Part shown: positions 21,032 to 24,189 of the stretch, in pieces
Layout: every line of letters begins with the position of its first letter
Position numbering within the stretch: position 1 is the first letter of the stretch
From: Candidatus Krumholzibacteriia bacterium
GTDB lineage: Bacteria; Krumholzibacteriota; Krumholzibacteriia; LZORAL124-64-63
DNA: 30,620 bases
NCBI GenBank assembly: GCA_030590265.1
Contig: JAUUYW010000001.1
Span: forward strand, 1-30,620
Direction of reading: 5' to 3'
Position numbers and translations under genes: made by a program
The notes under the pieces: model-generated
Database searches by the model: none
Seen by the model: the letters and a program-made list of their open reading frames with translations, nothing else
What the model was told of the DNA's origin: nothing

Positions 21032-21952
21032 TCAGTCCACCAGACGACATCCCATGGCAATGCTGAGAAACTTCGATTCTTCATCATCCGCGCGACTTGT
21101 CAAGACACAAGGGGCCGAGGTGCCCACTACCGACGCCGCCAACCGGGCCCCCGAAAGCAGCGTCGAAGATTTGTAGAATACATTGCCCGATTCAATATTC
21201 GGGAAAACCAGAATATCCGCATCGCCATTGACGGGTGAATTCAAGCCCTTGATTTTGCAGGCTTCCGGTGACAAGGCAACGTCCAGGGCCAACGGGCCGT
21301 CAACAATACAACCGGTGATTTCACCTTCACGATTGCGGCGGGTCAACTCGGCCGCGTCCACCGTAGCCTTCATGCGGTCGCTGACTTTTTCGGTGGCGGC
21401 AATAATCGCTGCGCGAGGGTTTTCCACTCCAAAACTGCTGGCAGCTTTGACACAGAAGCCTAATATCTGCGCTTTGGTTTCCAGATCAGGTCGCGGATTG
21501 ATGGCCACATCCGCCACAAAGAGCAGCTTGCCGTGGGTTTTCATGTAGGCCGGCAATTCCAGCACAGTGACATGGGACAGAATATTGCCGGCGGGCAGCA
21601 ATCCGGTTTCCTTGTTGAGGATCAGCTTCATGTAATCACTGGTGCCAATCAACCCCTTCATCAAAACGTCGGCTTCACCTGATCGCACCATGGCCACAGC
21701 CTTGGCGCCGGCTTCCAGCATGTCCTTTTCATCGACGATGGTGAAAACACCCACATCAATGCCGAACTCATCACACAGGACTTCAATGCGCTGTTGGTCA
21801 CCCACCAGAGTGATGGCGGCGATGTCTTCGGCGGCGGCCCGACCCGCGGCGGCGATGGTGTTGGGATCGTGACCGGCGGCAATGGCCACCCGGCGTGAGG
21901 GTTTGTCTTTCAGGTCCTGGACCAGTTGCTGAAGATCCTTGATGGCGGCCAT
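21032..21952 (-). CDS. ptb: Phosphate butyryltransferase (PTA_PTB family)
   Basis: ADVLMKG, LSHV, DVAINP, IVDGPLALDVAL, FPNIESGN, VLTSRAD (catalytic Ser-Arg intact). Confidence 0.92.
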   Translation of the reverse strand: MAAIKDLQQLVQDLKDKPSRRVAIAAGHDPNTIAAAGRAAAEDIAAITLVGDQQRIEVLCDEFGIDVGVFTIVDEKDMLEAGAKAVAMVRSGEADVLMKGLIGTSDYMKLILNKETGLLPAGNILSHVTVLELPAYMKTHGKLLFVADVAINPRPDLETKAQILGFCVKAASSFGVENPRAAIIAATEKVSDRMKATVDAAELTRRNREGEITGCIVDGPLALDVALSPEACKIKGLNSPVNGDADILVFPNIESGNVFYKSSTLLSGARLAASVVGTSAPCVLTSRADDEESKFLSIAMGCRLVD

Positions 21953-21966
21953 GAAACGATCCTTCC

Positions 21967-22797
21967 TTATCCTTGTGGTTGGTCGGGGTTGTATTCCCGA
22001 GCTTGTTCCTTTTCAGCCAAAACACGCAGAGCGCCTTTGATCAGGGCCCGCATTTCGTTTTCACCGGGATAGGCCGTCAAACCACAGCCAAGGGCACGAA
22101 TTCCGGCTTCGACGTCACGCACCAAACGCTCGCTGCGGGCCAAACCACCGGTCAGGAGCACCTGGTCGATTTTTTCGCCGTCGAAGGCTGGTAAAAGCCC
22201 GGTGATGCTCTTGCAAATCTGGTAAATCATGGCTTCGTAGACTTCGCAGGCTTCGGGTTCGCCGGCATCAACCCGACGCTCCACTTCGCGGAAATCTGCC
22301 GTGCCCAACAAGTCGATCAACCCACCGCGCCCCTTGTTCAGTTTGAGCAGTTCTTCGAGGGTGTAGTCGCCGCTGAAACAAAGGCGAATCAACTGGCCAG
22401 TGGGCTCGCTGCCCGAACGCTGGGGGCTGAAAGGACCTTCACCGTCGAGGCCATTGTTCACGTCAATGTATCGACCCTTGGCATGGGCACCCACGGTGAT
22501 GCCGCCTCCCATATGACAGACCACAAGGTTCAGGTACTCATAGAAAGTTTCGTGCTCTTCGGCATAACGACGGGCAGTCGCAATCTGGTTCAAGGCGTGA
22601 CTGATCACCCGTCGGCGGATGGCCTTCATGCCGGTAACCTTGACCCTGTTGGGGGCTTCGTCCACCACCACCGGGTCGACGATGAACGCCGGCTTGCCTG
22701 AATCGGCCACCAGTTCCCGGGCAATCAAAGCGCCCAGGTTTGAAGCATGGTCACTGCCCGTACCGGCGAGCAGATCGTCTTTCATCCTGGCATTCAC
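21967..22797 (-). CDS. buk: 3' fragment: butyrate kinase central and C-terminal part
   Basis: HASNLG, DPVVVDE, HALNQ, HMGGGITVGAH, DGEGPFSPQRSG, LTGGLA, YPGENEM; lacks the N-terminal NPGSTST motif, which lies upstream of the TGA. Confidence 0.75.
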   Translation of the reverse strand: MNARMKDDLLAGTGSDHASNLGALIARELVADSGKPAFIVDPVVVDEAPNRVKVTGMKAIRRRVISHALNQIATARRYAEEHETFYEYLNLVVCHMGGGITVGAHAKGRYIDVNNGLDGEGPFSPQRSGSEPTGQLIRLCFSGDYTLEELLKLNKGRGGLIDLLGTADFREVERRVDAGEPEACEVYEAMIYQICKSITGLLPAFDGEKIDQVLLTGGLARSERLVRDVEAGIRALGCGLTAYPGENEMRALIKGALRVLAEKEQAREYNPDQPQG

Positions 22798-22806
22798 CCG
22801 ATAGGT

Positions 22807-24189
22807 TCAATGCTTGATGGGATGCAACAACCCGCCGCGGCCACTGACCGCATCCAGATCCGATATGGCAATGCCATGGTTGGCAAGAGTCTTGAGGATG
22901 ATGTCCTTGCGCAACTCGTACTGCTTGACGATGCGCTGACCTTCGTAAGGCGCCAACTCATCGGCACTGTGCATGATCTCTTCGTTGAAGCGTTCCTGAT
23001 CGCCTTCGTAAACGGCAATTTTTGTGGAAGTGCTGCCAGGGTTGATGGCCAGCACACGGTGGCGCGGGAAGAACGTATCCTTGGGGGTGCGGCTCCAGTG
23101 ACCAAAACGGTGCATGCGCAAGACACAGGCCTTGACCCCCAGCATGGCATCCTCGGCGGTGCAATCCATGGGCAAATCCACACCCTGGAAACGAATGCCG
23201 AACATGACGCTGAATTTTTTTGCGTCGGGATAACGTGTGGCGTAAAGGTGAAACAGCAGGTTGCCGGTGTCCAGATTCGGGGCGATGATGACGTTGGTGC
23301 CACCCACAAAACTGTTCTCCTGCCCCCGGCGGTACAGATGAGCGCTGCGGCGGCTCAGAGCCACGCTGATTTTCACTTCACCTTCGATGTGAATGCTCTC
23401 ATAACGGCGGCCGCGTTTGATCCGGTCAGCTAAAACTTCCGGCACCAGTTTGCTGGCCTGGCGCACCAGCTCGGGGCTGGGACCTTCGTCGGAACCTTTG
23501 TTGGAGTAGGAGACAATGGCACCGTTGATCACCGGCAGAACATCCTCGGGAATAAGATCCCGGGCCACGGCGCAGGTGCCCACGGCGATGTTGGCCAGAA
23601 CCTCGCTGTCCATGGAACCGTTGGCCCCCACATCGCCCACCACCATGATGTTGTGGGGAAAAATTCCCCCGGGATGACTGTCCGGCAAAATAATGACCCC
23701 GGCTTCGGTCAAGACATCCTGTTTGGCCAAAAGGCGAATCATGGGTCGAAAATAATCACGCGGCTCGTGGGTGATGCCACCAACCACGATGTCGGCGTGC
23801 CCCTGACGCACGGCCATAATTCCGAAGCGTGCCGGCTGGTTGATGAGTTGGCGGGCTTCGTCCATATTGTTGGTGCGGCTGATGTGTTGTGGAAGATCGG
23901 CGCAGGCCTGGGAAAATTCCTCCATAAGATCCGTGCGCTCCACCGGATCAATAAAGGCACTCTCAGAAAGGGCAAACTCGATGCGGGTGGGGTCAACATG
24001 ACCCAACTCACGACTGACCACATCCTTGATGGCATCTTCGCTGGCCAAAAACACAGGGCGAATGAAGCGGGGCAAAAAACAGGCCCCTTCGATGATGCGA
24101 GGATCCGTAGCTTCGGTGAAGATGACCGCCGGTTTGTTCCGCATGCACGCAAGGATCTGTTTGTCGAGTGCCGCCTCTATGTCGTACAT
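22807..24189 (-). CDS. 5' fragment: degenerate Pta-like domain plus butyrate kinase N-terminus
   Basis: FTEATDPRII, ADIVVGG, DVGAN, SYSNKGS, APNLDTGN (Pta fold), then VLAINPGSTSTKIAVY...DAVSGRGGLL (Buk N-terminus). Confidence 0.7.
   Translation of the reverse strand: MYDIEAALDKQILACMRNKPAVIFTEATDPRIIEGACFLPRFIRPVFLASEDAIKDVVSRELGHVDPTRIEFALSESAFIDPVERTDLMEEFSQACADLPQHISRTNNMDEARQLINQPARFGIMAVRQGHADIVVGGITHEPRDYFRPMIRLLAKQDVLTEAGVIILPDSHPGGIFPHNIMVVGDVGANGSMDSEVLANIAVGTCAVARDLIPEDVLPVINGAIVSYSNKGSDEGPSPELVRQASKLVPEVLADRIKRGRRYESIHIEGEVKISVALSRRSAHLYRRGQENSFVGGTNVIIAPNLDTGNLLFHLYATRYPDAKKFSVMFGIRFQGVDLPMDCTAEDAMLGVKACVLRMHRFGHWSRTPKDTFFPRHRVLAINPGSTSTKIAVYEGDQERFNEEIMHSADELAPYEGQRIVKQYELRKDIILKTLANHGIAISDLDAVSGRGGLLHPIKH

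Follow-up and report, generated by a model that had tools for sequence, protein, structure and literature searches.

In a 30,620-nucleotide stretch of DNA from a Candidatus Krumholzibacteriia bacterium (contig JAUUYW010000001.1, positions 1 to 30,620; hereafter the window), a gene on the minus strand encodes a butyrate kinase (Buk) that carries at its N-terminus an additional domain of the phosphotransacetylase (Pta) fold. The gene shares an operon with ptb, which encodes a stand-alone Ptb whose catalytic Ser-Arg pair is intact. Judged by its residues, the Pta-like domain CATALYTICALLY is almost certainly non-catalytic, a conserved pseudoenzyme derived from Pta. We consider it fairly probable that this domain (hereafter the N-domain) is a conserved, non-catalytic module that works together with the separate Ptb. 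In the Ptb-Buk pathway, Ptb interconverts acyl-CoA and acyl-phosphate, and the kinase interconverts acyl-phosphate and the free acid plus ATP; the pair is the textbook route of substrate-level phosphorylation from butyryl-CoA or branched-chain acyl-CoA and also serves in the scavenging of short fatty acids. The elements of the locus on which the argument depends are as follows.

21967..24189, minus strand: fusion gene (putative Pta-like pseudoenzyme domain plus butyrate kinase), 740 codons, TAA stop at 21967-21969, one internal TGA.
23062..24189, minus strand: N-terminal Pta-fold domain, residues 1-376, delimited from Pfam, HMMER alignments, an AlphaFold2 (AF2) model and Foldseek.
23164..23178, minus strand: DLPMD (residues 338-342), at the site of DLSRG in active Pta, from the HMMER alignment.
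23359..23385, minus strand: EGEVKISVA (residues 269-277), at the site of DGE.Q.DAA, from the HMMER alignment.
23746..23748, minus strand: R148, aligned with Arg133 of Methanosarcina thermophila Pta and Arg581 of MaeB, a contact to the CoA pyrophosphate.
21970..23061, minus strand: butyrate kinase domain, residues 377-740, with INPGSTSTK, RGG, HMGGG, QRSG and PGENE present and conserved.
22807..22809, minus strand: in-frame TGA, codon 461, Gly in homologues.
21032..21952, minus strand: stand-alone Ptb of 306 residues in the same operon, 14 nucleotides after the fusion stop, with a GGAAGGA ribosome-binding site.
21086..21103, minus strand: LTSRAD of Ptb, with the catalytic Ser-Arg intact.

A preliminary description of this locus had proposed a Pta-like domain fused to Buk beside a normal Ptb with LTSRAD, and the reading frame, the profile scores and the positions of the motifs all agree with it. 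Residues 17-324 of the fusion protein match Pfam PTA_PTB (PF01515) with 89 bits against a cut-off of 24, Pfam Acetate_kinase also matches the protein, and residues 378-731, with the TGA read as Gly, score 431.5 bits with the NCBIfam butyrate kinase equivalog TIGR02707 (cut-off 289.1). The kinase motifs NPGSTSTK, RGG, HMGGG, QRSG and PGENE are found in the window copy and are invariant or nearly so across 40-75 homologues; their catalytic roles we take, by analogy, to be those known from acetate kinase. Only the uninterrupted frame is wanting in the window copy, where a TGA stands at codon 461; this broken frame of the assembly aside, the kinase half belongs to the butyrate kinase family. The separate Ptb scores 168.8 bits with Pfam PTA_PTB, and 321 and 305 bits with the NCBIfam Ptb models, values that lie under their strict equivalog cut-offs.

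To locate the catalytic residues, the N-domain was aligned with the Pta of Porphyromonas gingivalis (6IOW) and of M. thermophila (1QZT). HMMER places DLPMD opposite DLSRG and EGEVKISVA opposite DGE(l/m)Q.DAA, the two replacements that had been read from the sequence beforehand. By the same alignment, residues D309, S311, R312, D318 and R135 of the P. gingivalis enzyme correspond to D338, P340, M341, D347 and R148 of the window protein, respectively, and R89 falls in a variable stretch near position 100. In P. gingivalis Pta, the substitutions D309A, S311A and R312A each abolish activity and D318A leaves 11%, and the effects of R89A and R135A are moderate (PMC6461089); for S309 and R310 of M. 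thermophila Pta, equivalent results are related in that paper (Lawrence and Ferry 2006, cited in PMC6461089). Of 58 full-length homologues, 34 have Pro and 22 have Ala at position 340, and 49 have Met at position 341. The Ser-Arg pair is also absent from all of the roughly 75 members of the window's clade that were aligned, a few of which have Ala-Arg, Ala-Lys, Ala-Ser or Ser-Val instead. The enzyme profiles give a similar picture: the N-domain scores 75 bits with the Pta equivalog TIGR00651 (cut-off 311), and among the NCBIfam Ptb models, TIGR02706 included, NF004472 is the sole one to list it, at 16 bits against a cut-off of 399. The domain therefore combines the Pta fold and the Pfam match with the absence of the Ser-Arg pair and scores below the NCBIfam enzyme cut-offs, and because the defining catalytic feature is missing despite the fold, it should be classed neither as a Pta nor as a Ptb enzyme. 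Given these residue losses and the behaviour of the mutants, we infer that the N-domain does not carry out acyl transfer.

The domain is nevertheless under strong purifying selection, with a ratio of nonsynonymous to synonymous substitution rates (dN/dS) of 0.055-0.078, as low as that of the kinase. Inside its core Pta motifs, several changes specific to the clade are frozen at 93-99% (Q273K, G234D, G342D, A185G and A188G, together with the new residues R281 and H131), and Q273K is restricted to the clade without Ser-Arg. This pattern of substitution suggests a change of function better than a loss of it. R148 is retained in 57 of the 58 homologues, and N310, which corresponds to N718 in the acyl pocket of MaeB, in 54; the correspondence with MaeB contact residues was drawn through the Pta alignments rather than by direct structural superposition. 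At position 100, in the region where the basic residues for the 3'-phosphate of CoA would lie, the homologues are variable and mostly non-basic (Pro in 20, Cys in 10, Gly in 10, and others). The preliminary description had asked whether loss of Ser-Arg is conserved while CoA-binding residues are kept: within the clade the loss is conserved, and of the CoA-binding residues R148 and N310 are kept and the 3'-phosphate ones are not. The AF2 model of the N-domain has a pLDDT of 89, and Foldseek matches it about equally to Pta enzymes and to the PTA domains of MaeB (TM 0.69-0.75), with a probability of 1.00 to Pta structures.

The fusion has a wide distribution. By a word-indexed search we retrieved hundreds of full-length proteins, 733-750 residues in length and 67-91% identical to that of the window, which are called 'butyrate kinase' where they are named at all. 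All of the 24 sampled genomes of the window's family (f1; 18 genera) carry the fusion, and a scan of species-representative genomes confirmed at least 588 loci. The best 80 of these include Candidatus Krumholzibacteriia, several cultured Geothrix (G. fermentans DSM 14018 among them), Holophagaceae and Thermoanaerobaculaceae, as well as Eisenbacteria, Gemmatimonas, Myxococcota, Breznakiellaceae, Elusimicrobia and Aminicenantes. Since the architecture and the substitutions recur in hundreds of genomes, the resemblance of the domain to Pta is not a matter of chance. To our knowledge, an extra pseudo-Pta domain is unreported for the characterised Buk enzymes. The literature yielded nothing relevant on a fusion of Pta or Ptb with Buk; the preliminary description likewise had seen no account of a regulatory architecture of this kind for Buk.

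The fusion also travels with a separate ptb. All 24 sampled genomes of the window's family have a Ptb orthologue, at 61-91% identity, and in 23 it adjoins the fusion; in the remaining one (G007), the contig ends at the fusion and a different contig carries ptb. Beyond this family, 53 diverse full-length loci with enough flanking sequence were assessed. In 25 of them, ptb follows immediately downstream on the same strand (overlapping the stop codon of the fusion in 6), and in 17 more it is convergent within 4 kb, such that 42 of the 53 have ptb at no more than 4 kb; in the other 11 no ptb was found in the flank. Where genomes lack an adjacent ptb, a Ptb-type gene is present elsewhere in 7 of 9. 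In the partner Ptb, Ser-Arg is invariant in 33 sequences. With the pair absent from about 75 members of the clade, present throughout the partner and indispensable in P. gingivalis Pta, the degenerate Pta pseudoenzyme domain that had been suspected at the outset is supported.

Hence the question arises of how a kinase came to carry such a domain. When an N-domain profile was run over 1.84 billion cluster representatives, a compact family of 56 emerged at E <= 1e-30; beyond it the scores fall to about 110 bits, where ordinary Pta enzymes begin. Ser-Arg is kept by two stand-alone relatives (P0131 and P0156) and by two fusions with an intact kinase, one found as L119/P0132 (DFSRS) and one at L090 in a Myxococcota metagenome-assembled genome (MAG; DYSRG). 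It is also kept by the metagenome proteins P0128, P0134 and P0135, in which the kinase half has decayed and NPGSTSTK, HMGGG and PGENE are missing; to judge from these motifs, they are the mirror image of the window protein, with a putatively live transferase and a dead kinase. On a FastTree tree of N-domains rooted on canonical Pta, the Ser-Arg forms are basal, the Ala-Arg forms (P0125, L077, L060 and P0133) come next, and Ala-Met and Pro-Met forms make up the crown, the window protein standing in the most derived, Pro-Met group. Because the members that keep Ser-Arg are basal, the fusion predates the loss of the pair, and catalysis was probably shed stepwise. Furthermore, since the basal relatives keep Ser-Arg, two of them with an intact kinase and no ptb nearby, the fusion probably began as a bifunctional enzyme whose transferase chemistry was then lost in the order Ser-Arg, Ala-Arg, Ala-Met, Pro-Met. 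No ptb occurs in the 7 kb to each side of L119 or at the L090 locus, and the PF01515 matches of the L090 genome are one Pta and the fusion itself, with no Ptb-type protein. Small as this sample is, it suggests the direction that would be expected had Ptb taken over the transferase step. Homologous fusions that keep Ser-Arg had been named beforehand as evidence that would speak against a pseudoenzyme; they are found solely among the distant basal relatives L090 and L119/P0132, and the pair is missing across the window's clade. The degenerate state thus appears derived, and on the sequences the basal fusions refine the idea of a pseudoenzyme rather than refute it.

A sister family (f5) reached the linkage of the two activities by another way. 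Its Buk-Ptb proteins, at L117:360-2369 (-) and L118:2020-4077 (+), come from G033 and G038, two genomes that belong to the class of the window organism; they are 669-685 residues long, with Buk N-terminal and an intact LLSRSD, and would be true bifunctional proteins. By their motifs, the sister lineages are mirror outcomes, one a Ser-Arg-positive transferase with a decayed kinase half and the other a covalent Buk-Ptb fusion.

Two further proteins are recorded here in their own right. In an Acidobacteriota MAG (L089), the N-domain is decayed throughout, with most of its motifs unrecognisable and the kinase motifs intact; this genome has several Ptb-type genes. The second is P0147, a predicted protein of 905 residues. 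From a reading of its sequence, it would combine a CoA-acylating aldehyde-dehydrogenase-like part, a Cys-rich stretch, a stretch resembling a bacterial microcompartment shell protein, a portion of the N-domain and, at the C-terminus, a Buk-like region. Such a join may reflect a gene call that ran through in error, or else hint at a link to microcompartments.

As to what the N-domain does, the preliminary description had inferred a sensing or scaffolding pseudoenzyme that gates the kinase and had called for a model of its complex with the stand-alone Ptb. This model passed, with an ipSAE of 0.64 against 0.10 for the best control; the mark applied is reached by 58 of 80 solved complexes and by 2 of 110 mismatched pairs. 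At least 94% of contacts recur between runs, and the partner has a pLDDT of 90; the model of the full-length fusion has a pTM of 0.84. The modelled interface is the domain-II dimer surface of PTA, where N-domain residues 303-319 lie against Ptb residues 250-266, and it includes the substituted positions 341-342. We tentatively propose, as a possibility short of an even chance, that the N-domain is a docking paralogue which pairs with Ptb by the ancestral PTA dimer interface, so that a non-covalent Ptb:Buk complex would hand the labile acyl-phosphate to the kinase, and that this arrangement evolved from a bifunctional Pta-Buk, which shed its transferase catalysis step by step after Ptb had been recruited.

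The two-gene module would then work as follows. It would convert acyl-CoA with a short or branched chain into acyl-phosphate and this into fatty acid plus ATP, or the reverse, with the transferase step carried out by the separate Ptb and the kinase step by a Buk with a Pta-derived N-domain that no longer transfers. The ancestor of this domain would be an active Pta-like one, joined to Buk before the loss; within the window's clade, Ser-Arg was shed stepwise, through Ala-Arg and Ala-Met to Pro-Met, and the cleft was remodelled and then frozen. The domain would have been kept for a structural or regulatory role. It would retain the PTA dimer interface and thereby dock the stand-alone Ptb or associate with itself. 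Docking would join transferase and kinase, as the covalent Buk-Ptb fusion of f5 does, with channelling of the intermediate as the presumed result, and ligand sensing may add to it.

Another possibility, which we regard as rather unlikely, is that of an allosteric sensor in the manner of MaeB, in which the dead domain would bind acyl-CoA, CoA or acyl-phosphate and gate the kinase by a conformational or oligomeric change; it is compatible with docking. For comparison we used MaeB of Bdellovibrio bacteriovorus (6ZNG/6ZNT) and of Escherichia coli (9KRW). In both systems, a Pta fold is joined to an unrelated enzyme and has been kept as a non-catalytic module after loss of the catalytic Ser-Arg. The N-domain matches the MaeB PTA domains as well as it does Pta enzymes (TM 0.72-0.75), and it keeps the equivalents of R581 (R148) and N718 (N310). 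MaeB PTA domains likewise lack Ser-Arg (PMC7902834), as is true of two in the window's own genome, where the MaeB-type malic enzymes at G000:C126 (L002) and G000:C396 (L004) have ILQYG and MVSVN in place of DLSRG; the canonical pta-ackA pair of the same genome, on C369, has DLSRG. That the cleft motifs were remodelled and then frozen also suggests a functional site. However, the basic residues for the 3'-phosphate of CoA (R87 and K90 of Pta, R535 and K538 in the loop of MaeB) are not conserved in the window's family and align with its variable, mostly non-basic stretch, and Sinorhizobium meliloti TME, which is without the basic residues of this loop, is insensitive to acetyl-CoA (PMC7902834). 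Moreover, sensing alone leaves the tight genetic link to Ptb unexplained. Further differences from MaeB lie in the position of the domain, N-terminal on an acyl kinase of the ASKHA fold as opposed to C-terminal on a malic enzyme, in an identity of about 20%, and in the coupling of the window domain to a working paralogue, Ptb. The sequence matches of the N-domain are weaker to MaeB than to Pta enzymes, and since its nearest relatives are a Ser-Arg-positive Pta-like subfamily, stand-alone or fused to Buk, it lies outside the MaeB lineage. Of the earlier inference, the pseudoenzyme is supported; as to sensing, R148 and N310 are kept and the 3'-phosphate residues are not, and with the complex model favouring docking we slightly prefer docking to pure sensing, though both could coexist.

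Several points weigh against a non-catalytic module that works through Ptb. The pass of the complex model may be a memory of the homodimer interface, because homodimers have been solved in the family of both chains; the model does not tell an N-domain:Ptb heterodimer from an N-domain homodimer. The sample of Ser-Arg-keeping relatives behind the order of events is small, namely two loci and one genome. D338 and D347, the equivalents of Asp residues in the catalytic cleft, are retained, and the charged residues newly conserved in the cleft (K273, R281, D234 and D342) might make up a new active or ligand site instead of a plug. Finally, two genomes with Ser-Arg-less fusions (G043 and G048, MAGs of unknown completeness) gave no Ptb-type gene in our search. 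The last three of these, with the strong conservation of the cleft and the bifunctional look of the basal relatives, would suit an N-domain that has stayed a transacylase by rewiring its active site (for example, K273 and R281 in place of Arg310), perhaps for another acyl carrier or substrate, in a bifunctional protein; we think this improbable, as Ser and Arg are each indispensable in two Pta enzymes so far as PMC6461089 relates it, Pro or Ala with Met cannot provide their chemistry, the profile scores fall far under those of the enzymes, and throughout the family a canonical Ptb is inherited together with the fusion in one operon, where it would be redundant if the N-domain were active.

A separate matter is the TGA at codon 461 of the window copy. 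Where CAT TGA ACC stands in the window, the closest relative has CAT GGA ACC, as the preliminary description had supposed in taking the TGA to stand for GGA. The position is Gly in 58 of 58 aligned full-length homologues, inside an invariant H-G-T motif, and the codon in relatives is GGA or GGC. In every covering contig from four public metagenome runs, position 22809 is C on the plus strand, which gives GGA, including one 293-nucleotide contig with just 5 differences from the window; these contigs come from relatives, none of the runs being the source sample, and no public run contained more than 28% of the words of the region. Downstream of the TGA, dN/dS is 0.05-0.09 against three relatives, the same as upstream. 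Among the 24 sampled genomes of the window's family, no internal stop was found in any other, the listed stops of three relatives being terminal ones, and a scan of the window for further breaks by a single stop gave antisense-frame noise only. Because the Gly is invariant, the public contigs read GGA and dN/dS stays low after the stop, the TGA is no feature of the family; it is either a consensus error of the assembly or a nonsense mutation that is private and very recent.

Recoding, as for selenocysteine, is ruled out by the invariant Gly, encoded by GGA or GGC in relatives, and by the use of TGA as an ordinary stop in the window, where it ends other genes such as that of a Mur ligase at 26366; an old pseudogene is ruled out by dN/dS. 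There is an appreciable chance, if clearly the lesser one, that the TGA is genuine and the gene a recent pseudogene in this organism, in which case only the Pta-like domain and 84 kinase residues would be made and the kinase lost. The assembly does contain the TGA, and the codon is an ordinary stop in this genome. On the other hand, the break takes just one base change, in the first position of an invariant Gly codon, the sequence beyond it shows no relaxation, all of the public contigs across the site have GGA, other genomes of the family are without an internal stop, and the source is a MAG of 585 contigs with 81% completeness.

Setting the window locus beside the known systems, the N-domain shares with class I Pta (M. 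thermophila, 1QZT/2AF3; P. gingivalis, 6IOW/6IOX) the same two-domain fold, these being its best matches among solved structures (E of 4e-16 and 2.5e-14), and it keeps the Asp residues of the D309/D316 type, the SxS-KGS and P(D/N)L..GN motifs and Arg133. Unlike class I Pta, it has Pro and Met for Ser309 and Arg310, has lost Arg87, and has Q273K, G234D and G342D fixed. With the ptb-buk operons of clostridia and other Firmicutes, and with Thermotoga maritima Buk2 (1SAZ), the window locus has in common a full butyrate kinase, here adjoining ptb in the classical pair for turnover of butyryl-phosphate or branched-chain acyl-phosphate; the order in the window is buk-ptb, the opposite of those operons, and the kinase has the additional pseudo-Pta domain of 376 residues. 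The Buk-Ptb proteins of f5 link the same two activities in the same class of organisms, but in the opposite order, with a Ptb-type LLSRSD half and no pseudo-domain.

Downstream of ptb lies one more gene on the same strand.

20496..20993, minus strand: rubrerythrin gene, with a promoter-like site of its own at 21103-21076.

This site is a sigma-70-like match at 21076-21103 on the minus strand (TTGACA, a spacer of 16 nucleotides, AAGAAT), within the 3' end of ptb and 5' of the rubrerythrin gene. A rubrerythrin gene after ptb was seen only in loci of the Krumholzibacteriia type. Divergent from the fusion gene are a gene of the YkuD L,D-transpeptidase fold (24340-24954, plus strand) and, overlapping it, a MurC-like Mur ligase (24923-26368, plus strand). 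The YkuD/Mur neighbourhood (L097, L099) is retained in a relative whose fusion protein, P0115, is 68% identical to that of the window, and there the YkuD part and the Mur ligase form one protein of 696 residues.

Genome surveys take 'butyrate kinase' as a marker of the Ptb-Buk route. Our results show that a large environmental group, spanning Krumholzibacteriota, Holophagae with the cultured Geothrix, Eisenbacteria, Myxococcota and some spirochaetes, carries a Buk with a conserved domain that is in all likelihood a pseudoenzyme and that the databases label merely as 'butyrate kinase'. After MaeB, this would be the second time that a Pta domain has independently been put to use as a non-catalytic module. 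The family appears to preserve a well-resolved natural series from a bifunctional enzyme to a half-dead enzyme with a recruited paralogue, with reciprocal cases in which it is the kinase that has decayed, and it is accessible to direct testing in cultured Geothrix fermentans. The interest lies in the evolutionary series and in the possible docking of paralogues, of which the window locus is one slightly damaged copy.

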